From contig CAXXGI010000002.1 in the NCBI GenBank assembly GCA_963674695.2, positions 32,001 to 96,000 of the forward strand: 64,000 nt of DNA, read 5' to 3'. The notes beneath the pieces were generated by a model. It was not told where the DNA came from and ran no database searches. It was given only the letters and a program-made list of their open reading frames with translations. This stretch comes from a bacterium. Its GTDB lineage: Bacteria; UBA10199; 2-02-FULL-44-16; JAAZCA01. The number at the start of each line of letters is the position of its first letter. Within the stretch, counting starts at the first letter, position 1. Positions 1,992 to 16,612 of the stretch are shown here, piece by piece. A program made the position numbers and the translations under genes.

Positions 1992-3244
1992 TCATCCTCC
2001 CTTTCCCGTCTGTGCGTCGCTCGACCCGTCGCCCCGCGAGGCGTCGAGAATGTGTTCGATCTCCTGCTGCAGCTCTTTGATCCCCTCCCGCTCCTGCGGG
2101 GAGGCTTCCTCCGCCTCTTCATAGTTCAGCACGGCGTTGTCGAGCATATCCGCAACCGCGTCCGCCGACTTCCCGGAACGGGCAAAGACCTGGGCGGCGC
2201 GCACCGCCTCGTGCGCCGATTCCCGATAGCGCGCATCGTTGTAGAGGGTTATCGCCAGGAGCGCCTGCGCATTTCCGATGAAGGCCAGCATCTCCGGATC
2301 CTCCGAAACGCCCGAATACCCTTCATAGATCGCCCGGGAGAGAAGGATCTTCATGAGGACGATCTCCGGCGTGCTCATGCGGTCCCATGCCGCATCGTCT
2401 TCTCTCTCTCCGGAGAAATAGGGCATCGCCTCGACCAGCCGATACCAGGATAAGGCAGCTTCCACCAGGTACCACGACGTGTACTTCCGATTGCCGATCG
2501 ACTGAAATCCGGCAGCGGTCAGCTCCGAGATGAGCGCCGCCTCCGCATGCCAGCGCACCGACTTGGCCCTCTTCACCGCGCTGTCCAAACAGCGCAAACT
2601 CGAATGCGTCTCGAATCGACCGCTGTCGCCCACGGCGCGGATCGCGCTGTCCAGGAGGGCCTCGATCGTCCCCGTCACCAAGACGGGGTCGTCGCCGCGC
2701 ATCTGCTGTTCGAACTCCTCCAGCGGGATCCGCATCTGAATGCGCGACGGAAGCTTCGTCGCCCTGGTGATCGCCATGACATCGCCAATCTTGGTGAACC
2801 CCAGGGCCATCTCGACGTCCACGTCCTCGGAGGGGTGTTCGGCATCGAAGAGCCGCTGCGAGTGCTGTGCCGCCATCTCATAGAGCATCCCTTGCAACTG
2901 AAACCACGTCCGGGGATAGGCCCCGACGACGGAACGCGATGCGAGTTCCTGCGCCGCAGGCCGCATGATATGGGCATGGATAAGATCGGCACCGCTTTGA
3001 TACGCCCCGGCGAGCCTCGCATCCGCCGCGGGGACGGGCAGCGCCAGGAGAGGTTCGGGCGGCGCCAACTCCGGCATCGCCTCGAACGCCGCGGGGTCCG
3101 GCGGCGGCGCATAGTCGACCTCGCCCGTCGTCCCGTCGTCCCGTCGAGTTCCTGCGGGATGAGGCCGATGTTGTTGTCGACGCAGAACGTGTCGATGGCC
3201 GAAACCAGGCCCGTAGCTGCCGGTGGCGGTGTGATGAGCGTCAT
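1992..3244 (-). pseudogene. Orphan paralog 2, frameshifted by an 8-bp tandem duplication
   Basis: GGAGGAG RBS and ATG at 3244; N-terminus AIDTFCVDNNIGLIPQELDGTTG is in a different frame from ORF 1992..3077; removing one ACGACGGG unit (3124-3146) gives LDGTTGEVDYAPPP...MPELAPP, matching the paralogs. Confidence 0.8.
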
Positions 3245-3274
3245 AATGGTGGTCTCCTCCTCAGATCATCCTCT

Positions 3275-3301
3275 TCATCGCGGCGGGCGCAAAAAAGTTG
3301 C
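3275..3301 (-). promoter_or_regulatory. Putative alternative-sigma promoter (CAACTT-N14-CGAT motif)
   Basis: GCAACTTTTTTGCGCCCGCCGCGATGA, about 30 nt before ATG 3244. Confidence 0.55.
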
Positions 3302-3338
3302 CCATTTTTATCCCAACCGTCGGTTCCTCTCCGGTGTG

Positions 3339-4505
3339 CTATTTCTTTTTGGGAAAGAGCTGCCGGGCCTGTGCGATGAGCGCGGTCATCGCCCGGCACT
3401 CAGTCGGTGAGACGCTCGGCACACACTCCAGCTCCCCCGCTGCATCGACGATGAGTTTCAGAACGACATCGCCAATGGACTCGACGTCCAAGGGCCAATC
3501 GGAGGACGCATCCCTCCTCGTCGCCAGCATGTTCCGCGCCGACCGGAGGGTTTCATACGCCGCGTCCCGATGCCGCCCCTCAGCGCTCATCATCATGGCC
3601 GACGCCTGCTGGGCCCTGGCAAGATAATACCGGGTGACGCCGTGCGACCCTCCGAGATGTCCGTTTAAAATAGCGTGTGAGATGATCATGCGCTGGAGTG
3701 CCGGTCCGATCCGGCCCATTTCGGAAGGGGGCAGCAGTTGTGAGAGAAAAAACCACGCTCCGGCAGCCTGGGCGGAGGCCTCCGCGAATCGATCCGCATG
3801 CCCCAACGCCCGCCATCCCGACGCCGCCAGTTCCGTCAGAAGCGCCGCGTCCGAAAATCGCTCCGAGATGGTCGCAAACGACGACGCCCCCATCAGCAAT
3901 TCGAGGACGCTTTCCTGTTCAAATCGTCCATGGTGTCCGGCCATATCGATCGCCGCCAGAAGGCGTGCATTCATCGCCAAATTCGTGGCGAACGCATTCC
4001 CCTCCATGGCCTGGCGATGGAGTTCGTCGACATCCCCCTTCGGATCCACCTCCCTCGGCGTGTGAGTGAAAACCCTCATCGCGAGAAATTCGTGACTCAC
4101 GGTCTGTCCCGTGAGGATCACGACCGAAGGAGTCTCCGGCGCAGTCGTCGGGGAAAACATGCCACCCGCGCTCGAGGCGTCCGCCGCCATGGAAAAAAGA
4201 TTCCCCTGGAGTTCCAGCCATCGGTGCGGATAGTCGGCGTCGTCGGTGAAACGCGGGTTAAAATCCTTCATGTACGCGCTGGTCTCCCGATAGACCCGTT
4301 TCACCTCCGCGTCCGCCGCGGGGACCGGAAAGATGAGGAGCGGTTCGATCCAAGCGTCGACCTCCTCGGCCTCCGCTGGCGGCGCATAGACGACCCCGGC
4401 GTTATCGTCGATCGCCTGGGGATGGATGCCGATATCGCTGTCGCCGAAGAACTGATCGATGGACAGAATCAAGGCGCCAAAATTCGGCATGATCGTGTTC
4501 GGCAT
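3339..4505 (-). CDS. Hypothetical protein, paralog 1 of a tandem orphan family
   Basis: AAGGAG RBS; SIDQFFGDSDIGIHPQAIDDNAGVVYAPP, PVPAADA and GRHRDAAYETLRSAR shared with neighbours. Confidence 0.75.
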   Translation of the reverse strand: MPNTIMPNFGALILSIDQFFGDSDIGIHPQAIDDNAGVVYAPPAEAEEVDAWIEPLLIFPVPAADAEVKRVYRETSAYMKDFNPRFTDDADYPHRWLELQGNLFSMAADASSAGGMFSPTTAPETPSVVILTGQTVSHEFLAMRVFTHTPREVDPKGDVDELHRQAMEGNAFATNLAMNARLLAAIDMAGHHGRFEQESVLELLMGASSFATISERFSDAALLTELAASGWRALGHADRFAEASAQAAGAWFFLSQLLPPSEMGRIGPALQRMIISHAILNGHLGGSHGVTRYYLARAQQASAMMMSAEGRHRDAAYETLRSARNMLATRRDASSDWPLDVESIGDVVLKLIVDAAGELECVPSVSPTECRAMTALIAQARQLFPKKK

Positions 4506-4629
4506 ATACGGTGCTCCTTTTCATCGTGAAATCCCGCCCTTCTCTTATGATCCGAGGGCCGAAGAATCAAATCCCGTTTAAAAATGGCATGCGATGACAA
4601 GACGCGGTGGAATCGAAAAGGAGGGGCGA

Positions 4630-6012
4630 TCACTTCTTGTACGTCGACAGAAACCGTTCCACCTCGGGGATGCCACCTTGGTAGACGAGGTAGCCGTTGT
4701 GCGGTTCGCGCTCGGTGGTCTCGCCGGCGATGGGCATGAGCATCAGTTCGCGAATTTTTTCGGGATCTTCGGTCTGCCCCAGCGTCCAACAGAGCTTCAT
4801 GTAGGCCGCTTCCGGCAACATATTTTCGCAGGGGATGACGCCGAGTTCGAGGAGATAGCGACCGGTGTCGTAGACGTTCATGTGCACGTAGCCCCAGAGC
4901 GTCTGGACCGTCATGACGACGGTCACGCCCGCATCGACCGCGCGTTTGAGCGACGGATTGAGCGCGGCGTTGACGTGCCCAAGCCCCGTTCCCGCGATCA
5001 CGATTCCGCGATAGCCGTTTGCAACGAGACTGTCGACCATGTCGGGGCGCATGCCGGGGTAGTAATAGAGGATGGAGACGCGATCGTCATAGGCGGGGAC
5101 GATCTTCACCTCGCGATCGTCGCGGCGCTTGCGATACGGGCGTAGCGCCGCGACGCGATCGCTCCAGCACATGGCGATCGGAATCTCGCCGATCGTCCGA
5201 AACGTCGAGCGATAGCTCGAGTGCATCTTGCGCACGCGCGTGCCCATGTGCAGCAGGCCGTAGTCGTCGGAGGTCGGCCCGAACATGCAGACCATGACCT
5301 CGGCGATGTCGGAGTGCCCCGCGGTGAAGGCGGCGTTCAGGAGATTGCGCGCGGCATCGGAAGAAGGGCGATCGGAGGAGCGCTGACTGCCCACCAGGAC
5401 GATCGGAACCGGCGTATTTTGCACCATGTAGGAGAGGATCGATGCGGTGTGGTGCATCGTGTCGGTCCCGTGTCCGATCACGATCCCGCGCACACCCTCG
5501 CCGATGAGTCGCCCGATCTCCTCGGCCAGGACCTTGTACTGCTCGGGCCCCATGTTCTCGGAGAAGACGCCGAAGAGTTTTTTCGTCGTCAGGTTGCACG
5601 CATCGGCCAGTTCCGGAACCGCGCCGTAGAGTTCGCCGGGTGAGAAGGCCGGCACCACAGCACCCGTCGTATAGTCGAGCCGCGAGGCGATCGTGCCGCC
5701 CGTGCCCAGGAGCGTGACATTCGGTTTGCGTTTGTCGAACGGAAACTCCTGCTCCGGGATGGAATAGTGCCCCTCGCGACGCCCGACCTTTCGAATCGCC
5801 TGAATCGAATCGACATGCACGCCGGTGTTGTATCCGCTGTCCATCTTGATGACGATGTGGAGGGGATCCTCGGTCTTCGAGCGGGGGAGAATGAGGCCGG
5901 CAAACGGCCCCTTCGGCGTGTCGATCTCGACGCGATCCCAGACCTCGACGCCAAACTTCTTCAGGACATCGAGCCCCGGAGAGCGGTACCCCTTGTGCAC
6001 ATCATCGGACAT
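4630..6012 (-). CDS. gatD: Glu-tRNA(Gln) amidotransferase subunit D (archaeal-type)
   Basis: N-terminal GatD_N-like domain (LILPR..HIVIKMDSGYNTG) plus asparaginase-like core TGGTIASRLDYTTGAV, HGTDTM, GSQRSSDRPSSDA, GTRVRKMHSS. Confidence 0.92.
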   Translation of the reverse strand: MSDDVHKGYRSPGLDVLKKFGVEVWDRVEIDTPKGPFAGLILPRSKTEDPLHIVIKMDSGYNTGVHVDSIQAIRKVGRREGHYSIPEQEFPFDKRKPNVTLLGTGGTIASRLDYTTGAVVPAFSPGELYGAVPELADACNLTTKKLFGVFSENMGPEQYKVLAEEIGRLIGEGVRGIVIGHGTDTMHHTASILSYMVQNTPVPIVLVGSQRSSDRPSSDAARNLLNAAFTAGHSDIAEVMVCMFGPTSDDYGLLHMGTRVRKMHSSYRSTFRTIGEIPIAMCWSDRVAALRPYRKRRDDREVKIVPAYDDRVSILYYYPGMRPDMVDSLVANGYRGIVIAGTGLGHVNAALNPSLKRAVDAGVTVVMTVQTLWGYVHMNVYDTGRYLLELGVIPCENMLPEAAYMKLCWTLGQTEDPEKIRELMLMPIAGETTEREPHNGYLVYQGGIPEVERFLSTYKK

Positions 6013-6107
6013 ATCGGCAACCTCCCGGGAAACGTCATCCCAGGGGGGTTCTCGCCGGATCGGAGCGGGTTGTCAAGACACCCTCGATCCCGTACAATTC
6101 GGATCCC

Positions 6108-7313
6108 ATGCGCAAAAACCTCCTCGTCATCCTGCTCCTCATCGGCGCCACCGCCGGCGCCCTCTGCGGCTGGTGGTTCGGCCCACGCATGGAGGCCGTC
6201 GCCTTCATCGGCGACTTCTTCCTCACCCTCCTCTGGATGCTGGTGGTCCCGCTCATCCTCTTCTCGATGATCGCGGGGGTCGCCAGCCTCGGCGACATTC
6301 GGCGCGTCGGCGGCATCGGCCTCAAGACCCTCTTCTATTATTTTTCCACGACCGCAGCAGCGGTCTTCGTGGGTCTCGTCCTCGTCAGCATCATCCAGCC
6401 GGGTCGGGGGATCGCCATCGTCGGAAGTGTGGTGGAATCGAGTGCCGTGCAGGCCGGCTTTGTCCAGATCCTCAACTCCTTCATCCATCCCAACATCGTT
6501 CAGGCGATGGCGGAGACGAAGATCCTTCCGATCATCGTCATCTCCATCGCCTTCGGCGCGGCGCTCACGACCCTGGGCGAACGGGGCCGGGCGGTCATTC
6601 GCATCTGTGAGACGATCAATCAGGCCATCCTCGTCATCGTGCGACTCGTCATGTGGCTCGCGCCCGTCGGCGTCTTCGCCCTCGTCGCGGCAAAGCTCGG
6701 GGCGAGCGGGGGAGGGGATGCCTTTCTCGCAGAGCTGGCAAAGGTCGGAAAATATACCGCCACGGTGATCATCGGTCTCGGCATCCATGCCGTCGTCGTC
6801 CTACCCCTCATCCTCTGGATATTCGGGCGCCGCAATCCGCTGACCTATGCCTGGGGGATGATCGAAGCGCTCGTGACGGCTTTTTCCACCTCGTCGAGTT
6901 CGGCCACGCTTCCGGTCACCCTCGAAGCGCTCAAGGATCGCAACCACGTGAAGGAAGCGGCCGCCGATTTTGTCGCGCCGATCGGCGCCACGATCAACAT
7001 GGATGGCACCGCGCTCTACGAAGCGGTCGCGGCGATGTTCATCGCCCAGCGCTACGGCATCGAGCTGAGCTTCTTTCAGCAGTTCCTCATCTTCATCACG
7101 GCCACGCTCGCCTCCATCGGCGCGGCCGGCATCCCGCAGGCCGGTCTGATCACGATGGTGATCGTCCTCGAGGCCGTGGGACTTCCGCGCGAAGGGATCG
7201 GCATCATCCTCGCCGTCGACTGGTTCCTCGACCGCTGCCGCACGACCGTCAATGTCTGGGGAGATTCCGTCGGCGCCGCCGTCATCGAACGCGTCAAAGA
7301 GATGCGCGGGTGA
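6108..7313 (+). CDS. Dicarboxylate/amino acid:cation symporter (DAACS, GltP-like)
   Basis: AFSTSSSSATLP, GATINMDGTALYE, GAAGIP, DRCRTTVNVWGD motifs; hydrophobic. Confidence 0.93.
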   Translation: MRKNLLVILLLIGATAGALCGWWFGPRMEAVAFIGDFFLTLLWMLVVPLILFSMIAGVASLGDIRRVGGIGLKTLFYYFSTTAAAVFVGLVLVSIIQPGRGIAIVGSVVESSAVQAGFVQILNSFIHPNIVQAMAETKILPIIVISIAFGAALTTLGERGRAVIRICETINQAILVIVRLVMWLAPVGVFALVAAKLGASGGGDAFLAELAKVGKYTATVIIGLGIHAVVVLPLILWIFGRRNPLTYAWGMIEALVTAFSTSSSSATLPVTLEALKDRNHVKEAAADFVAPIGATINMDGTALYEAVAAMFIAQRYGIELSFFQQFLIFITATLASIGAAGIPQAGLITMVIVLEAVGLPREGIGIILAVDWFLDRCRTTVNVWGDSVGAAVIERVKEMRG

Positions 7314-7446
7314 TTCCCCTTGTCGCCTTCCCTCTCACCACGCGATTGTAAATCCAGGCGTGTGACCTGCCCGCCGGTTTGTTAGGCGGGGCCGAGACGG
7401 CGGTTCCGAAAAATGCCTTTCTCCAGGGGATTTCTGTCGCGCCGAT

Positions 7447-8058
7447 TTACGTCTCGCCATCTCCGCTTGCCAACATCCGCATGATCTCGGCGTCCTCGTC
7501 GGCGTTTTGTTCGGCCGCCTCATCGCGCAGGAGGAGCAGGCCGTCGAGGAGCGTGCGCTCGAAGCGATCGAGGCGCTCGGGGGCGGCCACCTGAAAGAGG
7601 ACGCGCGCGCCCGCCTCGGTCACGCGCACGGCACGCGCATGCATCGTCCCATCGACGCGATAGCACAGCTCCCTCGAACGGAGGCGATAGGCATCCCCCT
7701 GGATGGGGGCATCGACGAAATGGGTGTGATGATCGACGCCGTGTTGGTCGGGCAGTTCGCGCGCGAAGAATTCGATCACCTGCGCACGCCGAATGCGAAA
7801 GAGCTCGCCCTTTTCGCGTTCGGCCTCGCGCCAGAGCAGGATCATCGTCCCGTGCGAGGAACCGCCGCCGTCCGGGGCGTGCTGGGTATGGATGTATTCA
7901 TCGATCGCGCCGTCGCCATCGGCGTCGGCGAAGCGCTCTTCGTGAATGATGCCGTGTTCGTCCTGAAAGGAGAGTTCCAGGTATTCGTGATCTCTGGTCT
8001 GCTTGTAGACCGCATCGAGAATGCGAACCATGGGCCACCCGCTAACGCCCCCGGGCAC
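7447..8058 (-). CDS. Hypothetical protein (contains a DxDGDG Ca-binding-like loop)
   Basis: ORF fills the gap between symporter and gatE; DADGDGAIDE; preceded by the CAACTT/CGAT motif; start uncertain (GTG 8058 or ATG 8031). Confidence 0.6.
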   Translation of the reverse strand: MPGGVSGWPMVRILDAVYKQTRDHEYLELSFQDEHGIIHEERFADADGDGAIDEYIHTQHAPDGGGSSHGTMILLWREAEREKGELFRIRRAQVIEFFARELPDQHGVDHHTHFVDAPIQGDAYRLRSRELCYRVDGTMHARAVRVTEAGARVLFQVAAPERLDRFERTLLDGLLLLRDEAAEQNADEDAEIMRMLASGDGET

Positions 8059-8075
8059 ACGCGCCCCTCACACCT

Positions 8076-8105
8076 ATTATCGGTTGCCGGACAGGTGAAA
8101 GTTGC
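8076..8105 (-). promoter_or_regulatory. Putative alternative-sigma promoter (CAACTT-N16-CGAT motif)
   Basis: GCAACTTTCACCTGTCCGGCAACCGATAAT. Confidence 0.55.
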
Positions 8106-8205
8106 GTGAAATTCCAGAATTGCAGACAATTTTTCACTGCAGGGCGAACGCCGCCTCGTCATACCCCTTGCCTTGGAGCCTCCTTCATTCTATGCAGACA
8201 GCCAC

Positions 8206-9960
8206 ATGAGCGACGACCTCAAAAAACTCGGGTTCAAGTGCGGCGTGGAGATCCACCAGCAGCTGCTGACACAGAAGAAGCTCTTCTGCCGCTGCCCCGC
8301 GGGGCGCTATTCGCAGGAGCATCACGCCGAAGTCTTGCGCCACATGCGCCCGACGCTCTCGGAGATGGGCGTCTACGACGGCTGCGCGCTCATGGAGTTT
8401 AAGACCAAAAAGGATATCGTCTATCAGCTCAACAAGGAGAGTGTCTGCACCTATGAGATGGACGACACGCCCCCCTTTCCAATCAATGCCCAGGCGCTCG
8501 ACATCGCCATCGAGATCGCGCTCATCACCGGATGCTCCATCGTCGACGAGCTGCACATCGCGCGCAAACAGTACCTCGACGGCTCGATCCCGACGGGATT
8601 TCAGCGCACCGGGATCGTCGGCATCAATGGGAGCGTCCCCTTCGAGGGAGGCCAGATCCCGATCCGCCAGTTCTCGATCGAAGAGGATTCCTGCCGCGAG
8701 GTCAACGATTCGGGCCATCGCATCCATTTTCGTACCGATCGCCTCGGCATGCCGCTGATTGAAATCGTCACCGAACCCTGTTTTAAAACGCCCGAGGAGG
8801 CCGCGCGCGGCGTGCGCCACTTAGGGCGCCTCATGCGCGCGACCGGAGATGTCCGCCGCGGACTCGGTGCGGTGCGCCAGGACGTCAATGTCTCCATCGA
8901 TGGCGGCGCGCGCGTCGAGATCAAGGGCGTGCCGCGCTATCAGCTGATCCCAAACCTCACACGCATCGAGGCGCTGCGCCAAAAGGCGCTGCTCGGCATT
9001 CGCGAAGAGCTCATCCGCCGCGGCCTGACCAAAGAGACGCTCGAAACGAGCGAGCGCGACCTGACGGAGAGCTTTCGCAACACGCGCTCACCGATCTTGA
9101 GCGCGGCGCTCGAGCAGGGCCATCGCATCCGCGGCATCTGCATCCGTGGCATCGCCGGAATTCTGAACACGCCGACGCAGCCGGGCAGGATGTTCGCCTC
9201 GGAACTGGCCGGCCGTGTACGCGTCATCGCCTGTCTGGATGACATTCCGAACCTCTATCATACCGACAACTACCCCGAGTATCCGCGCACCCACATCGAC
9301 CGTCGCGCGATCCGGCTCGCCCTCAAACTCCGCGACGAGGACGTCGGCGTCATCGTCTGGGGTCCGGAGGCCGACACGATCACGGCGGCAAACGAGATCC
9401 GCGATCGCCTCGGCGAGGCCTTCGATGGCGTCCCGTGTGAGACGCGCCAACACCTGCGCGAGGGACTGACCGACTTCGAGCGGATTTTGCCGGGCGCGGA
9501 CCGGATGTACCCGGACACCGACCATCCGCCGGTGCGTATCACCGCCGAACGCGTCGAAAAGATTCGGGCCACCCTTCCGGAGCCGACAGCAGCGGTTGAG
9601 GCGCGTCTGCGCGCGCACGGCCTCCCCGAGGACACGATCGGCGACCTCGCACTCTCGACGCACGTCGCGCTCATCGATCGCCTGCATGCGGAAAAGTTCG
9701 ACATGAAGCTCGTGGGAAGGGTGCTGGGTCAAACCGCCCGGAGTCTCAAGCGACAGGGGATCAACATCGAGTGGATCACCGAGAAGAACTGGATCGCCTT
9801 TCTGCACCACACCGCGAAGGCCAAGACGAAACCCAAATACTTTGAAGCCGCCCTCATCGAATTCGCTGCCTCTCCAGAACGCACGATCGCTGAAATCCTG
9901 GACACCTTCGTTGAAGAGGGCCCTGCACTTCACGACAAAGAAGAACTGTCCGCAACTTGA
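8206..9960 (+). CDS. gatE: Glu-tRNA(Gln) amidotransferase subunit E (archaeal-type)
   Basis: GFKCGVEIHQQL..KLFCRCP, YEMDDTPP, RKQYLDGSIPTGFQRT, EEDSCR, DRLGMPLIEI, RRGLGAVRQDVNVSI, RVEIKGV, internal GAD-like insert, LPGADRMYPDTD. Confidence 0.92.
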   Translation: MSDDLKKLGFKCGVEIHQQLLTQKKLFCRCPAGRYSQEHHAEVLRHMRPTLSEMGVYDGCALMEFKTKKDIVYQLNKESVCTYEMDDTPPFPINAQALDIAIEIALITGCSIVDELHIARKQYLDGSIPTGFQRTGIVGINGSVPFEGGQIPIRQFSIEEDSCREVNDSGHRIHFRTDRLGMPLIEIVTEPCFKTPEEAARGVRHLGRLMRATGDVRRGLGAVRQDVNVSIDGGARVEIKGVPRYQLIPNLTRIEALRQKALLGIREELIRRGLTKETLETSERDLTESFRNTRSPILSAALEQGHRIRGICIRGIAGILNTPTQPGRMFASELAGRVRVIACLDDIPNLYHTDNYPEYPRTHIDRRAIRLALKLRDEDVGVIVWGPEADTITAANEIRDRLGEAFDGVPCETRQHLREGLTDFERILPGADRMYPDTDHPPVRITAERVEKIRATLPEPTAAVEARLRAHGLPEDTIGDLALSTHVALIDRLHAEKFDMKLVGRVLGQTARSLKRQGINIEWITEKNWIAFLHHTAKAKTKPKYFEAALIEFAASPERTIAEILDTFVEEGPALHDKEELSAT

Positions 9961-9980
9961 ACTCCCCGTCGGCCGATAAT
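9952..9980 (+). promoter_or_regulatory. Putative alternative-sigma promoter (CAACTT-N15-CGAT motif), overlapping the gatE stop
   Basis: GCAACTTGAACTCCCCGTCGGCCGATAAT, about 20 nt before ATG 9998. Confidence 0.6.
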
Positions 9981-9997
9981 CGATAGAGGATCCATTC

Positions 9998-10768
9998 ATG
10001 GGAGAGATCACCATCACGCCCGTCGGCGGCGCTACTCCGCTGACGACGCCATCGACCACAACGCCCGCCACAGCTCCGGTGGGGGGCAGCAGCATATTCG
10101 TGGTAACCGTGCTGCCGAAGAAAACCCCCTCGCCGTCACTGCCTGACGCGCGACGCTTTGGAAGCACCGCCGCCGATTACCAGCGCGATCTCGCACGCTT
10201 CAAAGAACACATCCCGACGTTCAGCCCGATCCTGCCCGGGACGAAATGCGCGCAGATCACATCCCTCTTTGGCAAACGACGGCGCAGAAAAAAAGAACGC
10301 GGCGTCGGTGGACCGCGCTGGCGTCGACACCAGGGGGTCGACTTCGCCGCGCTTCGCGGCACGCCGGTGATGGCAGCTGCATCGGGACGCGTCGCCTTTT
10401 CCGGATACAAGCGTGGCTACGGGTGGATCGTCATCATCGATCATGGGTTTGGATTTCAGTCGCGCTATGCGCATCTGAGGCGCAGGTCGAAGTGCCGGAA
10501 GGGCGCACACATCGAGCGGGGCGATCGGATCGGAGGCGTCGGAAACTCCGGACGCAGCACGGGACCGCATCTGCATTTTGAAATTCGAAAAAATGGAAAG
10601 CCGATCGATCCGATGCCGTTCGTGGGGGGCGAGGCCTTCATCACTCCTGGCCGGTCGTGGAGGAAGCTCTTCCGCGGAAAAGCAAACGGAAGATCCAAAA
10701 AAAGCCAAAGACGATCGCCACGCCGATCGCACCGGCCGAAAGCCCGGACCAAAAAGGCGACGCGATGA
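9998..10768 (+). CDS. M23-family metallopeptidase (peptidoglycan endopeptidase-like), no signal peptide
   Basis: HQGVD (HxxxD), YAHL, GRSTGPHLHFEIR; Thr/Pro-rich N-terminus. Confidence 0.88.
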   Translation: MGEITITPVGGATPLTTPSTTTPATAPVGGSSIFVVTVLPKKTPSPSLPDARRFGSTAADYQRDLARFKEHIPTFSPILPGTKCAQITSLFGKRRRRKKERGVGGPRWRRHQGVDFAALRGTPVMAAASGRVAFSGYKRGYGWIVIIDHGFGFQSRYAHLRRRSKCRKGAHIERGDRIGGVGNSGRSTGPHLHFEIRKNGKPIDPMPFVGGEAFITPGRSWRKLFRGKANGRSKKSQRRSPRRSHRPKARTKKATR

Positions 10769-10949
10769 AGGGAAGCGAATAGTCGGGCAACGGCGACGCA
10801 ATCACGGGCGCTTCCGAAGCGCTTTCAATAAATCCCGTCTGCTCGGCCACCCATTCGAGGCCGTCGGGAAAGGCGGAGGCAAACGCCGACGCGAGCGCCA
10901 CGACGGCGAGACAGATCGCGAGCGCGATGACGATCGATCGACGATTCAT
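10641..10949 (-). CDS. PDGLE-domain membrane protein (CbiN/NikN-like ECF component)
   Basis: MNRRSIVIALAICLAVVALASAFASAFPDGLEWVAE...PLPDY; ATGA overlap with cbiM stop. Confidence 0.85.
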   Translation of the reverse strand: MNRRSIVIALAICLAVVALASAFASAFPDGLEWVAEQTGFIESASEAPVIASPLPDYSLPFIASPFWSGLSAGAIGVAIVFGFFWIFRLLFRGRASSTTGQE

Positions 10950-11569
10950 GTGAGCATCTCCGGTTTGACCTTCCCGATGAAGGCAACGACGAGCCAGGTG
11001 ATGATGCCTTCGCCGATGCCGATCACCGCGTGCACACCTGCCATCGCCGGAAGCGCGACGCGCAGCGGAACCGTTCCGGAGAGTGCGAGCTCCCCCGCAC
11101 ACGCGGTCGCGGCCACGACCACCGAGATCCAGGCGCCGAAGAAGACGCCGACGTGTCGCCACGCCGTGGAGCGCCCGAGGCGCGCGATGCTGGCAAAGAT
11201 CGCCCAGCCAACCCAGGTCCCGAGGATGGCCATGTTGAAGACGTTCGCCCCCAGGACGATGAGCCCTCCGTCCTGAAAGACCAGACACTGGACGATGAGC
11301 ACGACGGTGAGGATGAGCGTGGCCGCCATGGGACCGACCACAACCGCGGCGAGCACGCCGCCCATCAGGTGACCGGAGGTCCCTCCAGCGACGGGAAAGT
11401 TGAACATCTGGGCAGCGAAGATGAAGGCCGCCAGCACGCCCATGACGGGGATGAGCCGATCGGCGAAGCGCTTCTTGAGGCGCGCGATCGCCAGCGCCAG
11501 GCCGCCCGCCGAGAGCAGGGCGCACCCGCCGGAGACGGGGAGGTTTAAGAATCCATCTGGAATATGCAT
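10946..11569 (-). CDS. cbiM: ECF Co/Ni transporter substrate-binding component CbiM/NikM
   Basis: Diagnostic MHIPDGFL N-terminus, FAAQMFNFPV, GTSGHLMGG, QDGG. Confidence 0.9.
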   Translation of the reverse strand: MHIPDGFLNLPVSGGCALLSAGGLALAIARLKKRFADRLIPVMGVLAAFIFAAQMFNFPVAGGTSGHLMGGVLAAVVVGPMAATLILTVVLIVQCLVFQDGGLIVLGANVFNMAILGTWVGWAIFASIARLGRSTAWRHVGVFFGAWISVVVAATACAGELALSGTVPLRVALPAMAGVHAVIGIGEGIITWLVVAFIGKVKPEMLT

Positions 11570-11590
11570 GGGCCTCGGCTTTACGGTTGT

Positions 11591-11670
11591 GTCATCCCCG
11601 CATGATGGAAGCGGGAATCCAGCCTTGTGTCTTCCAGACTGGATCCCCGATAGAATCACTCGGGGATGAC
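11591..11670. repeat. REP-like palindromic doublet (degenerate copy)
   Basis: GTCATCCCCGC..GCGGGAATCC ... GGATCCCCG..CGGGGATGAC. Confidence 0.7.
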
Positions 11671-11694
11671 CACTAAAATGAATACAGCTCCTTC

Positions 11695-13419
11695 TTACAC
11701 GACCACGATCTTCTTCGGGCGCCACTTCCCCTTTATGAGATCCATAAACCCGATGTCGTGGTTATACATATACTGCTGCGTCACGCTCATGACCGTGTTC
11801 ACGAGGATGTAGACCACCAGCCCCACCGGCAGGAAGAGCATGAAGGCGGTGAACATGACCGGCATGATCATCATCATCTTCTTCTGCGCCGGATCCGCGG
11901 AGGTCGACGGCATGAGTTTCTGCTGCGCCACCATGAAGACGCCCAGGAGAATCGGCGTGATGTAATAGGGATCGGGCGCCGAGAGGTCCTTATAGATCCA
12001 GAAGAAGGGCGCGTGATAGAGTTCGATCGAGTTCCACAAGACCTTATAGAGGGCGATGTAGATCGGGAACTGCAACAGCATCGGCAGGCATCCGCCCATC
12101 GGGTTCACCTTGTGCGCCCGAAAGAGCTGCATCGTCTCCTGGTTGAGCCGCTGCTTGTCGTCCTTGTACTTCGCCTGCAACTCCTTGAGCTTCGGCTGGA
12201 GCTGCTGCATCGCCTTCATCGACTTGAGCGACTTCTTGTTGATCGGATGGAGCAGGAGCTTGGCACAGATCGTCAGCAGGATGATGGCGATGCCGTAGTT
12301 GTGCACGATGGAGTAGAAGAATTTCAACACATAGAGGATGGGGACCGCGATGACCGTGAACCATCCATAGTCGATGGCGTCGTCGAGGTGCACGCCGATC
12401 GCCTTGAGATCGTTGATCTCCTTTGGCCCTGCATAGGCGGAGAAGGTGACCGTGCTGCTCGCCCCCGCCGGGATGACCGTCTGCGGCATGACCGCCCCGG
12501 CAAAGACCGCATGCGTCCCTGCGGGCGATCCGTCCGGCGCGGGTGCGGCGCCATATTCAGCGGCCAGACCCATGCCCTGCAGGCGCGGCACAATGACCGA
12601 GAGAAAATAACGGCTCTCCAGGCCCGACCAGAGCACCGCTCCTCCCTGTTCCGTACGCGGACCCATCTTGGCCGCATCCTTCTCGCGTTCAACATTGCCA
12701 TCCAGATAATAGAGCGGCGTCATGCTCTCGACGTTCGGCTGTTTCATGAAACCCAAGAGCCCACCGCTGCCCTGGGCGGGCAGAACCATGCCGCTCCAGG
12801 TCATCGCGGGACGCCCCCGGAGGACCCCTCCGCTGCGATTGCGTAGGACAATCCCCACCTCGACGAGATAGTTCTTCGGATCGAAGGCATAGCTCTTCTC
12901 GACCTCGAGCTCCTTCGAACGCCAGCGAAAGACCGCGCCGCTGGCCGATGATTCCACCAGCTCATACCGCGGCTTTTCCGGAAAGGCGAAGGTGGCCCCC
13001 TGAAAGGAGAGGGCGGTCGGCGCGGGGAGGTTCGGCACCTTCTGCACCAGTTCGATCAACGGACTGTTTGCATCGGTTCCCTGATGGTATCCCTTGATGC
13101 GCCAGGAGGCAGGAACGCCGCCGTCGGTCGTGAGCTCCACCTCATAGAGATCGTTTGTAATGGTGACCGTTTTAATCGGCAGGTTTGCCTGCGGATCGAT
13201 TGTCGTCGGCACCGCAGCAGCCGCTGTCGTTTCCGCCGGCGTCGTCGTGACGGCCGGTGCTGGCGCCGTCGCCGCTGCCGTTTCGGCCGCGACAGGCGCG
13301 TTCGTCACGGTGCTCGCCGGTGCGGTCGGCTCCTGTGCCGGCTTGATCACCGTGAACCAGAGGAGGAAGAATCCTGCCGACAGCGCAATGGCGAGAATGC
13401 CGCGATGTTGCGATTTCAT
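11695..13419 (-). CDS. yidC: Membrane protein insertase YidC
   Basis: YAGPKE, IDYGWF, NYGIAIILLT, NPMGGCLPMLLQFPI, DLSAPDPYYI; synteny with yidD-rnpA-rpmH. Confidence 0.97.
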   Translation of the reverse strand: MKSQHRGILAIALSAGFFLLWFTVIKPAQEPTAPASTVTNAPVAAETAAATAPAPAVTTTPAETTAAAAVPTTIDPQANLPIKTVTITNDLYEVELTTDGGVPASWRIKGYHQGTDANSPLIELVQKVPNLPAPTALSFQGATFAFPEKPRYELVESSASGAVFRWRSKELEVEKSYAFDPKNYLVEVGIVLRNRSGGVLRGRPAMTWSGMVLPAQGSGGLLGFMKQPNVESMTPLYYLDGNVEREKDAAKMGPRTEQGGAVLWSGLESRYFLSVIVPRLQGMGLAAEYGAAPAPDGSPAGTHAVFAGAVMPQTVIPAGASSTVTFSAYAGPKEINDLKAIGVHLDDAIDYGWFTVIAVPILYVLKFFYSIVHNYGIAIILLTICAKLLLHPINKKSLKSMKAMQQLQPKLKELQAKYKDDKQRLNQETMQLFRAHKVNPMGGCLPMLLQFPIYIALYKVLWNSIELYHAPFFWIYKDLSAPDPYYITPILLGVFMVAQQKLMPSTSADPAQKKMMMIMPVMFTAFMLFLPVGLVVYILVNTVMSVTQQYMYNHDIGFMDLIKGKWRPKKIVVV

Positions 13420-13426
13420 GAAAGCC

Positions 13427-13666
13427 TCATTTCGTTGGGGTTGATACCGTCGGCACCGGATCGACGCCGCCGGCATTCCAGGGGCCACACTTGACGAGCC
13501 GCGCTGCAATCAGTTGCAGTGCCCGCGACCAATAATGCGTTTCAAGCGCTTCGCGCGCATAGGCCGAACAGGTCGGATGAAAGCGACACCCACCTCCCAG
13601 CGCATGCACGACCGGCGAGAGAGCCACGCGATAAGCGTCGATCATCCAGATGAGCAATCGGTTCAT
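13427..13666 (-). CDS. yidD: Membrane protein insertion efficiency factor YidD
   Basis: CRFHPTCSAYA, KCGPWNAGGVDPVP. Confidence 0.93.
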   Translation of the reverse strand: MNRLLIWMIDAYRVALSPVVHALGGGCRFHPTCSAYAREALETHYWSRALQLIAARLVKCGPWNAGGVDPVPTVSTPTK

Positions 13667-14025
13667 GCTTTCTCCGGTGGTTTTCGCTTGGGCCTCGATG
13701 CCCATCGTGTCAGCGCGCTTTCCAGATCATGTCGAATGACGCTGTTGGGAAGCTCAGCCGCGCCGGCAAAGGGAATAACGACGCAGTCGCCCTGAGGAAA
13801 CCGATCGCGGTGGAGCCGAAAGAACTCTCGAACGACGCGCTTGAAGCGATTGCGATCGTGCGCTTTTCCCGCGCGCCGTGAAACCGCAAGCCCTAATCGT
13901 TGCGCGTCGCCCGCGAGTACCGCCACACGAAGACAACCGCTTCGCGTCGCGCGCCCCTGCTCGCGAACCGCAGCAAACTCCTCGGCACGCAGCAAGCGCG
14001 CCGACTTTGGGAATCGATGCGCCAT
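13663..14025 (-). CDS. rnpA: Ribonuclease P protein component
   Basis: FPKSARL, RLGLAVSRRAGKAHDRNRFKRVVRE (RNR motif). Confidence 0.95.
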   Translation of the reverse strand: MAHRFPKSARLLRAEEFAAVREQGRATRSGCLRVAVLAGDAQRLGLAVSRRAGKAHDRNRFKRVVREFFRLHRDRFPQGDCVVIPFAGAAELPNSVIRHDLESALTRWASRPKRKPPEKA

Positions 14026-14038
14026 GGAAACAGGGTCA

Positions 14039-14176
14039 TCAGTCGGCAGCGAGGCGGACGCGCCCCTTTGCGCGGCGGTTGTTGATGATCTTGCGGCCGC
14101 TCTTCGTCTTCATTCGCGCGCGAAACCCTAAGCGGCGCTTCCGTCGTCTGTTGCTTGGTTGGTAGGTACGTTTCAT
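14039..14176 (-). CDS. rpmH: 50S ribosomal protein L34 (absent from ORF track)
   Basis: Manual translation [45 protein letters not shown]. Confidence 0.97.
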
Positions 14177-14364
14177 TTTTTCACTTCCTCTTCAGGTGAT
14201 GCCCCCGAACCCTTCATGTAGAGTCAAAAAATGACGGCTAATTGCCGTCACCGCGGGAACTTCTTCATCGTCATCGACCGTTCGCGTTTGCGGCGCACAT
14301 ACATATAATTTTTCCGCCCAGAGTCAAGGCGATTTTTCGCTTATTCCAAGACGAGTTAAACCAC

Positions 14365-14633
14365 TTATCCACTTTTTTTTGTTTTTACCTTGCAAAGGTT
14401 CACCGCTCTCAAATAGGAACAGTTTCGTCACACGATGAAAACTTCAACACGGAATGACATGCGCCCCTTCTTTTTTCACAGCCATTCACCTTCGACGATG
14501 TCCGTCAGATCCAAAAGCGCGCATGGATCGACCAAGCAGCCCCGACGCCTCTTCCGAGTGGCCGTGGAGCTATCACACTAACGCGCGCATGGGAACCCCC
14601 GTTATCCACACCTGTGGGTAATGCTGTGGACTT
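14365..14633. promoter_or_regulatory. DnaA boxes in the dnaA promoter region
   Basis: TTATCCACA 14602-14610, TGTGGGTAA 14613-14621, TTTTTCACA 14472-14480, TTATCCACT 14365-14373. Confidence 0.75.
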
Positions 14634-14641
14634 TTTGACCA

Positions 14642-15979
14642 ATGGCCAACTTGCTCGAACAACTCCGCAACAATATCAAGAGTAAAATCAGCGACTTAAA
14701 CTATACAACCTGGTTTCGCCCCATCATTGACGCCAACGTCAAGGATGGTGTTTTTACGCTCGTCGTCCCCAACAAATTCGTCGCCGACTGGATCAGCGAC
14801 TACTATCAGGACCTGATTCGCCAGGAGCTCTTTCGGCTCACCGAGGCCAATTATCGCATCGGCTACCTGGTCGCGCCCGAGGCCGAAATCGAGACGCCCG
14901 AGGTTGCGCCAAAACAGACGCCCACCTCCCCGGCGATGCCGCGCGTGCGCACGGTCGACCATCTCAACCCGAAGTATGATTTCGATCGCTTCGTCGTGGG
15001 AAGTTCCAATCAGTTCGCCCATGCCGCCTGCAAGGCGGTCGCCGACCTGCCCGGCGGTCATTACAATCCGCTGTTCATCTATGGCGGCGTCGGCCTGGGA
15101 AAAACTCACCTCCTGCACGCCGTCGGACTCGGCGCGCTGGCACGTCGTCCAGAGACGCAGATCATCTATGTGAGCGCTGAGAAGTTCATGAACGAGCTGA
15201 TCAACGCTATTCGCTATGAAAAGATGCCGTCCTTTCGGCAGAAGTACCGCGATCGGTGCGAAGTGCTGCTCATCGACGACATCCAGTTTCTCGGGGGCAA
15301 GGAGCGCACGCAGGAGGAGTTCTTTCACACCTTCAACGCCCTCCATGAATCACAGCGCCAGATCGTGCTGACCAGTGACAAACTGCCGCGCGACATTAAG
15401 GGGATCGAAGAGCGGCTGCGCTCGCGCTTCGAGTGGGGGCTGATCGCCGACATCCAGGCACCCGACCTCGAGACGCGCATTGCCATCCTGCGCAAAAAGG
15501 CCGAGGCCTCAAATCTCTCCTGTCCGGACGACATGTCGATGTATCTGGCCAGCTGCATCAAGAGCAACGTCCGCGAGCTCGAGGGGAGCCTCATTCGCAT
15601 CAACGCCTTTGCCTCGCTCACCGGCGTACCCGTTTCGCTCGCACTCGCCCAGGAGATCCTGGGCAACACCATCGGGCGCACGCAGGACTTGGTCGCCACG
15701 ATCGAGTCGATCCAGAAGATGGTCGCGGGGTATTACAACGTGGGGATCTCCGATCTCAAATCGCCCCGGCGCCTCAAGGTGATCGCCTATCCGCGCCAGA
15801 TCGCCATGTACCTCTGCAAGAAACACCTCAAGACGTCATTTCCAGAGATCGGTGGAAAGTTCGGCGGGAAAGATCACACGACCGTCATGCACGCCTGCCG
15901 CAAGATCGAACGCCTACTCGCTAGCGACGCCTCCCTCCAGAACGACATCGCCCGTCTCGAAAAGAGTATTCTGCAGTAG
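14642..15979 (+). CDS. dnaA: Chromosomal replication initiator DnaA
   Basis: YNPLFIYGGVGLGKTHL, LLIDDIQF, TQEEFFHTFN, RLRSRFEWGL, GGKDHTTVMHA. Confidence 0.99.
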   Translation: MANLLEQLRNNIKSKISDLNYTTWFRPIIDANVKDGVFTLVVPNKFVADWISDYYQDLIRQELFRLTEANYRIGYLVAPEAEIETPEVAPKQTPTSPAMPRVRTVDHLNPKYDFDRFVVGSSNQFAHAACKAVADLPGGHYNPLFIYGGVGLGKTHLLHAVGLGALARRPETQIIYVSAEKFMNELINAIRYEKMPSFRQKYRDRCEVLLIDDIQFLGGKERTQEEFFHTFNALHESQRQIVLTSDKLPRDIKGIEERLRSRFEWGLIADIQAPDLETRIAILRKKAEASNLSCPDDMSMYLASCIKSNVRELEGSLIRINAFASLTGVPVSLALAQEILGNTIGRTQDLVATIESIQKMVAGYYNVGISDLKSPRRLKVIAYPRQIAMYLCKKHLKTSFPEIGGKFGGKDHTTVMHACRKIERLLASDASLQNDIARLEKSILQ

Positions 15980-15998
15980 GGTTGAGCTCGTACCAATT

Positions 15999-16183
15999 TA
16001 ACCCTAATTCGGCAATAATTCTAGAGCAAATCTCTTCCAGCCGTTGTCATCCCCGCGAAAGCGGGGATCTCGATGCTCACCGTAACATCAACCAAAGGTG
16101 GACTTTGAAAACGGAAGAAACATCGAGATTCCCGCCTGCGCGGGAATGACAAAACAAGGGATTCTTTTGCCGGATTAGGGCTA
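15999..16183. mobile_element. MITE-like element carrying a REP doublet (16046-16150)
   Basis: Terminal inverted repeats TAACCCTAATTCGGCAA / TTGCCGGATTAGGGCTA (15 of 17) enclosing GTCATCCCCGCG...CGCGGGAATGAC. Confidence 0.55.
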
Positions 16184-16210
16184 ATTATTCCAGATGGATG
16201 TCTCCATCTC

Positions 16211-16355
16211 AGACTGCTGACAAAGCCTTCTCGTGCTGTCATTCTTGTAAAACCAAAGATTGTCATTCCCGCGAAGACGGGAATCTCGCTTTTTGCGGTA
16301 CACCGAGATCCCCGCCTGCGCGGGGATGACAAAAACACACGTTTGTCATCAGCCT
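16211..16355. mobile_element. Second MITE-like element carrying a REP doublet (16262-16330)
   Basis: Inverted ends AGACTGCTGACAAA / TTTGTCATCAGCCT (12 of 14) enclosing GTCATTCCCGCGAAGACGGGAATC...CGGGGATGAC. Confidence 0.5.
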
Positions 16356-16384
16356 CATCGATGCCGCTCTTTTTATTCCCCAGC

Positions 16385-16612
16385 CCTCCGGGATAACCCT
16401 GTGGACTGCTGTGAATTGCGTGTTGACACTTCGCGCCTCGGTGGATTACTTCTCATCCATCAGGGGATGAGTCGGGATAAGGTGCCTTTTTCCACATTGG
16501 CTCACGGTCGAGAAACGCTTTTGTATTCACCGTTTCCCTCACTTATCCCTGTTTCCACAGCCCCTACTACGACTACTGTTCTTTCTTTTAATAAAGAAAA
16601 AAGAACTAAAGA
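16385..16612. other. Replication origin oriC (DnaA boxes, DnaA-trios, AT-rich unwinding element)
   Basis: Several degenerate boxes (TTTTCCACA 16488-16496, TTATCCCTG 16543, GTTTCCACA 16551) then GCCC, CTACTACGACTACT trios and an AT-rich tract directly before dnaN, matching the B. subtilis-type basal unwinding system. Confidence 0.85.

Follow-up and report, generated by a model that had tools for sequence, protein, structure and literature searches.

The window analysed here, a stretch of 64,000 nucleotides from a bacterial chromosome (positions 32001-96000 of contig C2 in genome G000, which comprises 3.03 Mb in three contigs and is rated 100% complete), encodes a true GatD and GatE pair, the two subunits of an amidotransferase that reviews have described as restricted to archaea (PMC2811023 and PMC9499178, in the available passages). 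The frames and catalytic motifs of the pair are intact, the tail domain at the C-terminus of its GatE is gone, and the genome also encodes the bacterial GatCAB. We lean, with modest confidence, towards regarding the pair as a catalytically intact, accessory Glu-tRNA(Gln) amidotransferase that would act beside GatCAB with altered tRNA recognition; its substrate and the joining of its subunits into a complex are presumed from sequence. Three features are new here: the loss of the tail throughout a bacterial order, the way in which the two genes are split apart at the origin region, and a tally of the other routes present, in which bacterial GatDE is rarely alone.

The gene gatD (4630-6012, minus strand) encodes an asparaginase-type, ammonia-releasing subunit of 460 amino acids (aa), and gatE (8173-9960, plus strand) a kinase/transamidase subunit of 595 aa. 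Both open reading frames are intact, and the genes diverge from each other at a distance of 2.1 kb. GatE is predicted to start at a TTG at 8173, the first start in the frame, and a GGGAGG motif stands 7 nucleotides upstream of the gatD ATG. Against the NCBIfam models, GatD scored 499.6 bits with NF003217 (cut-off 310) and 494.3 bits with TIGR02153, gatD_arch (cut-off 324). It also passed the generic type I asparaginase model asnASE_I, a subfamily model, at 373.9 bits; a stand-alone type I L-asparaginase was rejected, as the GatD equivalogs scored about 120 bits higher and the GatD_N domain was present, followed in Pfam by the Asparaginase and Asparaginase_C domains. The closest solved structures were the archaeal 1zq1_A (E 7.9e-117) and 2d6f_A (E 2.3e-114), with which the alignments showed identical motifs: GTGGTIASR at 103-111, HGTDTM at 181-186 and RKMH at 261-264. 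We take the catalytic residues within these to be the Thr of GTGGT, the Thr-Asp of HGTDT and the Lys. GatE scored 528.5 bits with NF003107 (cut-off 456) and 445.8 bits with TIGR00134, gatE_arch (cut-off 319.55). The GatB subunit of GatCAB was considered for this gene and rejected: the best GatB model, NF004012, gave 134.2 bits against a cut-off of 338, and the true gatB of the genome lies elsewhere. Pfam recognized only GatB_N in GatE, at residues 22-461. The closest solved structures were again archaeal, 2d6f_C (E 3.4e-99) and 1zq1_C (E 3.9e-97), and long blocks of identity were common to all three proteins; among 38 bacterial GatEs, 121 alignment columns were invariant, every one at or before D450. 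A preliminary description of this stretch had reported intact gatD and gatE with diagnostic motifs, to be abandoned if the best hidden Markov models turned out to be L-asparaginase or GatB; the curated models instead named GatD and GatE, and the motifs are those of both solved archaeal enzymes.

The distinguishing feature of this GatE is its C-terminus. The match to TIGR00134 spans positions 3-556 of 622, and overall the matches of the window GatE end at model position 556-562 of 622-630. Lengths differ correspondingly, from 553-615 aa in the window's group to 633-697 aa in other phyla. In the alignment of 38 GatEs, the last 55-70 residues, with their G..M...RG..G motif, were absent from 13 (the window, 11 close relatives and the protein of locus L032) and present in the other 25. 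The Pfam domain GatB_Yqey was found in each of three tested GatEs, from Ignavibacteria, Gemmatimonadota and Planctomycetia, and was not found in the GatE of the window or of loci L020, L024, L026, L032 and L057. In the order's other genomes, 15 GatEs scored over the cut-off, with matches that stop at model positions 536-575 of 622; the sole GatE elsewhere in the class, in genome G036, reaches position 600. An AlphaFold2 model of the window GatE (mean predicted local distance difference test score 83.5, predicted template modelling score 0.83) matched chain 2d6f_D with Z 37.1 over 516 residues (model 14-564 against 1-538 of the chain, the protein having 619 residues) and Staphylococcus aureus GatB, 3ip4_B, with Z 28.0 and a root-mean-square deviation of 2.9 over 383 residues (model 18-581 on chain 2-411). 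The AspRS-like insertion matched AspRS with Z 10-13 over 287-419 (1c0a_A, Z 13.0, model 287-417). GatB itself is divided into a cradle (1-294), a helical domain (295-407) and a tail (412-475); in both GatB and GatE the tail is homologous to YqeY and attached through a flexible linker, and C-terminal deletion of GatB abolishes tRNA binding (PMC2811023, as far as its available text goes). Because our model stops at GatB residue 411, where the helical domain ends, the tail is missing from the window GatE, which consists of cradle, AspRS-like insertion and helical domain. The preliminary description had called this C-terminus short and divergent; alignment, Pfam and structure model all trace the shortness to a true loss of the tail domain, with the helical half of the YqeY-like region retained. 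A whole bacterial order has a GatE without the part presumed necessary for binding and discriminating tRNA, which raises the question of whether a tail-less GatE can still select a tRNA, and which one.

One answer would be that the tail is supplied in trans, by a stand-alone YqeY or by GluRS in a transamidosome-like complex, leaving a normal Glu-tRNA(Gln) amidotransferase. The genome does contain a stand-alone YqeY gene, homologous to the missing GatE tail (G000:C2:622199-622627, plus strand; PF09424, 167.5 bits). The homology and flexible linker just described would suit such an arrangement, and archaeal GatDE has been reported to form complexes with non-discriminating GluRS (available part of PMC9499178). 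However, the YqeY gene lies about 590 kb away from gatDE, and small YqeY-like frames occur also in relatives without GatE (e.g. G002, G015 and G031), so that the association is not a specific one. We consider supply in trans decidedly improbable.

Whether GatDE replaces or supplements the bacterial route had been left undecided in the preliminary description. Since gatA and gatB are both present in this genome, GatDE is a supplement to GatCAB, not a replacement. The gatB gene lies at G000:C1:822814-824241 (607.8 bits) and is adjoined on contig C1 by gatA (600.2 bits). No glnS gene scored over the cut-off anywhere in the genome; the sole match was the GluRS gene, at 74.4 bits against 425.8. That gene, gltX, is present in a single copy (565.9 bits), and asnS, for AsnRS, is also present (457.2 bits). 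Two AsnB-like genes, one of them adjoining a glycosyltransferase, pass the broad TIGR01536 model; they scored 613 and 391 bits with an XrtA/PEP-CTERM amidotransferase model and 317 and 267 bits with the model for AsnB proper, the cut-off of which is 499. The suggested check on the first base pair of tRNA-Gln gave U1-A72 followed by G73, the bacterial type, in both genes, tRNA-Gln(CUG) and tRNA-Gln(UUG). The tRNA-Asn of the genome has the same U1-A72 and G73. The archaeal enzyme, by comparison, is reported to read A1-U72 and the D-loop (PMC2330236 and PMC9499178, in excerpt). We file the pair as a variant rather than a plain member of the GatDE system because the tail domain is missing and the tRNA does not carry A1-U72.

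If the pair is an accessory Glu-tRNA(Gln) amidotransferase, GatD would release ammonia from glutamine or asparagine in the manner of an asparaginase, while GatE would grip the acceptor end of Glu-tRNA(Gln), activate the side-chain carboxyl and then amidate Glu to Gln. The Glu-tRNA(Gln) would be made by the single GluRS, which must produce it because the genome has no GlnRS and which is presumably non-discriminating. Recognition of the tRNA must differ from that of the archaeal enzyme, because the D-loop-reading tail is gone and the tRNA-Gln is U1-A72: selection may be relaxed, may rest on the cradle and helical domains, or may be aided by another protein.

The distribution of the genes was surveyed first among relatives, in a set of 41 genomes made up of the window's own and 40 others. 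GatE was found over the cut-off in 17 of these: the window genome, 10 of 12 genomes in family f1, all four in f2, the single one in f3, none of four in f4, and one of the 19 remaining genomes of the class. GatD, over the cut-off in 18 of the 41, accompanies GatE in 17 of 17. Such a pattern (15 of the 17 genomes of f1 to f3 carry GatE) indicates that GatDE has been long resident and vertically inherited within the order. Alongside it, 10 of the 17 GatE-bearing relatives have GatB without GlnRS, five have GlnRS without GatB and one has both, so that 16 of 17 possess GatCAB or GlnRS; neither was found in the remaining genome, which is 83% complete. The split of 10 against five shows GatCAB and GlnRS replacing each other while GatDE persists. 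Fifteen of the 17 have AsnRS, and 14 have an AsnB-like gene (TIGR01536).

Beyond the order, GatDE proved to be common. In a scan of one genome per species, 210 stretches encode a GatE relative, and the best 80 of the 210 are all from bacterial metagenome-assembled genomes (MAGs); the closest are labelled Deltaproteobacteria, Myxococcales or Bdellovibrio, followed by Planctomycetota, Gemmatimonadota and Ignavibacteria/Melioribacter. At least 8,000 GatD-like proteins were scored in a set of 5.8 billion proteins, of which the best 120 are bacterial wherever named. NCBI and JGI already name these bacterial proteins GatD, and the subunits of the full-length bacterial pairs GatD and GatE, and the bare presence of GatDE in bacteria is therefore not new. 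No paper on bacterial GatDE was found among open-access papers and bioRxiv preprints, searched exclusive of supplements, and the archaea-only statement quoted above feeds scenarios on the entry of glutamine into the genetic code and on the gene content of the last universal common ancestor. What is new is the count of accompanying pathways. Among 49 GatE-bearing genomes of other phyla (G041-G089), 44 have GlnRS and 26 have GatB over the cut-off, with one further partial copy; 46 have GatCAB or GlnRS, and three, the completeness of which is unestablished, show neither. In the genomes sampled, bacterial GatDE nearly always stands beside GlnRS or GatCAB.

Several of these observations weigh against an accessory Glu-tRNA(Gln) amidotransferase. 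In the window genome GatCAB is itself able to make Gln-tRNA(Gln), so GatDE is dispensable by textbook logic, and the staying of GatDE while GatCAB and GlnRS swap around it fits a job other than the bulk supply of Gln-tRNA(Gln). In the other phyla, GlnRS is present in most GatE-bearing genomes. The tail-less GatE may bind tRNA poorly, given the effect of C-terminal deletion in GatB (PMC2811023, available portion), and both tRNA-Gln genes carry U1-A72 rather than the A1-U72 read by archaeal GatDE (PMC2330236, in part). The textbook role does not explain why GatDE is retained, because in the genomes sampled it is nearly always redundant. We put forward, tentatively and with more doubt than conviction, that bacterial GatDE persists across many phyla not as a housekeeping enzyme for Gln-tRNA(Gln) but for something that the other routes lack, the tail-less form of this order perhaps being relaxed or dual in specificity (Asp-tRNA(Asn) as well as Glu-tRNA(Gln)) or acting on a new substrate.

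The redundancy could also mean that GatDE has left translation altogether, coupling the hydrolysis of asparagine or glutamine to the ATP-dependent amidation of some other carboxylate, or serving only as a regulated asparaginase or glutaminase. The loss of tRNA binding by GatB without its C-terminal part (PMC2811023, as available) would agree with this, as would the splitting of the operon, its genes being divergent here and on separate contigs in relative G013. Against it, the three domains that hold the acceptor arm in 2D6F, namely the cradle, the AspRS-like insertion and the helical domain, are each found in the high-confidence model, and the helical domain is conserved in the window's group. 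Neither the unbroken co-occurrence of GatD with GatE among the relatives nor the lack of any conserved neighbour suggestive of another pathway favours such a role, which we judge quite improbable.

Changed specificity within translation is somewhat easier to entertain, although still unlikely. In that case the tail-less GatDE would amidate Asp-tRNA(Asn), alone or in addition to Glu-tRNA(Gln), and so provide a tRNA-dependent route to asparagine. The tRNA-Asn of the window genome shares U1-A72 and G73 with both tRNA-Gln genes, GatDE is retained in the five relatives with GlnRS and without GatB, and both AsnB-like genes score nearer to the XrtA/PEP-CTERM model than to AsnB proper. Data from the other phyla bear on the same question. 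All five of their genomes tested gave a match to AsnRS (four over the cut-off, one partial). An AsnB-like gene was found in 30 of the 49, and of the 19 without, one has AsnA. Four of the 49 show no AsnA, AsnB-like gene or GatB; one of them, G041, is a complete chromosome of 5.0 Mb. In G041 (which holds locus L038 and is labelled Gemmatimonadota), G066 and G069, GlnRS accompanies GatDE, no GatB, AsnA or AsnB-like gene was found, and AsnRS was found in G041; either these bacteria are auxotrophic for asparagine or they are where a GatDE making Asn-tRNA(Asn) is best sought. The GatEs of the four synthetase-less genomes, however, are of the longer kind rather than tail-less (663 aa at loci L057 and L062, with no GatB_Yqey hit at L057). 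Within the window's own group, AsnRS in 15 of 17 relatives and an AsnB-like gene in 14 leave no complementary pattern, the GatCAB of the window genome can itself amidate Asp-tRNA(Asn), and archaeal GatDE does not use that substrate, according to the available passages of PMC2330236.

As a separate observation on the same 49 genomes, GatB occurred more often in those for which the searches gave no asparagine synthetase (14 of 18, as against 13 of 31, figures uncorrected for relatedness or completeness). This fits GatCAB serving tRNA-dependent asparagine synthesis in those bacteria, independently of GatDE.

Contigs in Logan from three public runs of one study cover the region; these runs may include the source sample of the window and are not fully independent of it. 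No RNA run was listed for the region. A single Logan contig of 6,445 bases corresponds to 5216-11660 with no differences, beginning within gatD and taking in the symporter gene, an orphan frame, gatE and a peptidase gene, and adjoining contigs extend over 3000-5242 and 11641-15451. Synteny lends independent support. The gatD and gatE genes of related genomes stand head to head, usually 125-500 bases apart, and are followed by yidC and dnaA: YidC comes after GatE at 13 loci (L010, L011, L014, L017, L019, L020, L023-L026, L028, L029 and L031), and DnaA after YidC at six of them (L020, L024, L025, L026, L028 and L029). The chimeric join between gatE and yidC that the preliminary description wished to see checked is contradicted by both the contigs and the recurring gene order. 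Its remark on a codon style like that of the bacterial dnaA region also proved accurate, G+C at third codon positions (GC3) being 0.82 in gatD, 0.80 in gatE, 0.80 in yidC and 0.79 in dnaA. That the genes are an artefact, whether an archaeal contaminant, a chimeric contig or decaying relics, is suggested only by the family's unexpected taxonomy and by the insertion, itself unusual, that parts gatD from gatE; with contig support free of differences, conserved synteny with yidC and dnaA, host-like codon G+C, intact frames with conserved catalytic motifs, and the closest 120 GatDs bacterial wherever named, we regard this as scarcely credible.

The window GatD is 80-85% identical to those of its family members, more than GatE (63-76%), DnaA (61-73%) or full-length YidC (48-60%) at the same loci, which places GatD under strong constraint. 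At one locus, L030:346-2136 (plus strand), in a MAG labelled Pseudobdellovibrionaceae, the GatE frame contains one in-frame stop, the result of either a sequencing error or a broken copy; this locus was excluded from later protein comparisons.

For the phylogeny, GatD was searched against 1.84 billion cluster representatives, and trees were built with FastTree and IQ-TREE. The named bacterial GatDs, with four unnamed representatives, formed one clade with support of 100 by both methods, and in it the window's group stood as a sub-clade of its own. Among the nearest neighbours outside the bacterial clade is a protein from Sigynarchaeota. Only three of the non-bacterial representatives are named and all three are archaeal (Sigynarchaeota, Thermococcus and a Thermoproteota MAG). 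The root, when set with one asparaginase outgroup on a branch of length 2.06, fell among the non-bacterial representatives, where supports of 28-91 are weak. The preliminary description had proposed an old horizontal acquisition. Its age is borne out by the distribution within the order, and the trees and the distribution together show a single origin of bacterial GatD and a long stay in the order; an archaeal source does not follow from a single bacterial clade and a weak, long-branched root. One cluster representative, P0122 (943 aa), contains a complete GatD at 493-936, 55% identical to that of the window, with about 490 residues ahead of it at the N-terminus; it is possibly a fused form inside the bacterial clade.

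Comparison with characterized systems places the window pair between several of them. With archaeal GatDE (Methanothermobacter thermautotrophicus, 2D6F; Pyrococcus abyssi, 1ZQ1) it shares both subunits, the domain order up to the helical domain, the asparaginase-type motifs in GatD and the AspRS-like insertion in GatE. It differs in lacking any equivalent of about 80 residues at the C-terminus of the 619-aa M. thermautotrophicus GatE, in the tRNA-Gln of its host, which has U1-A72 in place of A1-U72, in having GatCAB beside it as another route to Gln-tRNA(Gln), in the divergent direction of its genes and in its bacterial host. The full-length bacterial pairs (Ignavibacteria/Melioribacter, Planctomycetota, Gemmatimonadota and other MAGs) share its highly supported GatD clade, are 64-70% identical to it in GatD and 49-57% in GatE, and likewise coexist with GlnRS, GatCAB or both. 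Their longer GatE is encoded by a gatE gene followed by gatD on the same strand, whereas in the window's order the shortened gatE is divergent from gatD or unlinked to it. GatB of GatCAB (S. aureus, 3IP4) is a paralogue of GatE with the same cradle and helical domains. Action on U1-A72 tRNAs, which is established for the amidotransferase of bacteria in the available part of PMC2330236, would have to extend to the window GatDE. In contrast to GatCAB, the pair uses an asparaginase-type GatD and not the amidase-type GatA as donor subunit, possesses the AspRS-like insertion and has no GatC, and its GatE reaches at most 134 bits with GatB models whose cut-offs are at least 315. An amidotransferase that persists though formally redundant also has a precedent in the GatCAB that stands beside GlnRS and AsnRS in Deinococcus, Thermus and Bdellovibrio, where it serves tRNA-dependent asparagine synthesis (PMC4206432, in excerpt). 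Those bacteria have GatCAB and no asparagine synthetase, as that excerpt describes them, unlike the present case of GatDE with AsnB-like genes mostly present.

The sole tRNA-Asn(GUU) gene of the window genome (G000:C1:924014-924444, minus strand; loci L109/L110) is interrupted between anticodon positions U35 and U36 by an intron of group I, recognized with Rfam RF00028 at 71.4 bits (gathering score 50; E 9.4e-18). Because the intron splits the gene, ARAGORN and the tRNA covariance model gave no tRNA-Asn. The two halves of the interrupted gene were met again in at least eight of the 40 relatives (G001, G004, G010, G012, G014, G015, G016 and G018), while G002, G005, G008 and G009 have an uninterrupted gene. 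The middle part of the intron in the window genome (about 924160-924240) is some 75 bases longer than in relatives (a query gap of 87, as compared to 13 in G004), and the extra stretch resembles short word repeats. Group I introns are known in tRNA-fMet and tRNA-Ile2 (PMC8450103, in its available portion); a search of the open-access literature found no paper on introns in bacterial tRNA-Asn.

The space between gatD and gatE is occupied in the window genome by two further frames, as the preliminary description had noted. The first (6108-7313, plus strand) encodes an SDF/DAACS symporter of 401 aa, which scored 416.6 bits with Pfam SDF and fell under all NCBIfam cut-offs (DctA, 227.5 against 513; GltP, 213.2 against 638). 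The second (7447-8058, minus strand) is an orphan frame of 203 aa, possibly shorter if an inner ATG is used, opposite which the frame at 7507-8109 (plus strand) is an apparent antisense shadow. The orphan belongs to no Pfam or NCBIfam family and had no tblastn match in related loci; its look-alikes in the Atlas were weak, with a recognition of 2143, below the 2300 reached by most real families, and it is no more than a putative gene. Among the loci compared, this insertion occurs in the window genome only: no SDF homologue adjoins GatE at the other 89 loci, and in relative G001 the same spacer holds unrelated genes for a V4R-domain protein and a PAS histidine kinase. Since the spacer content of G001 differs and the symporter stands there only in the window genome, the spacer gathers unrelated passengers, and the symporter was rejected as a component of the GatDE system.

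On the other side of gatE, 38 nucleotides behind it, lies an M23 peptidase gene (9998-10768, plus strand; Pfam Peptidase_M23, 122.6 bits) that was not found beside GatE at the other loci compared. It is followed by yidC (11695-13509, minus strand; TIGR03592 and TIGR03593 above their cut-offs) and dnaA (14642-15979, plus strand; TIGR00362, 555.5 bits, cut-off 343.9). With the exception of the peptidase gene, GC3 is 0.79-0.85 across the genes of the locus from gatD to dnaA. In other phyla the recurrent neighbours of GatDE are a PhoH/PIN protein, an aldehyde dehydrogenase and a methyladenine glycosylase, which were considered as functional clues and set aside, as none hints at a function. Transfer RNA genes flank GatDE at one of 80 loci (L085, with tRNA-Gln and tRNA-Glu). 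Finally, in the stretch that separates dnaA from the next gene, at 15609-16542, the summed depth of Logan contigs rises to 114-333, compared with about 6-28 in the flanks (8-25x), and the contigs there show many short joints and loose ends, which points to a repeat family in the origin-proximal spacer.

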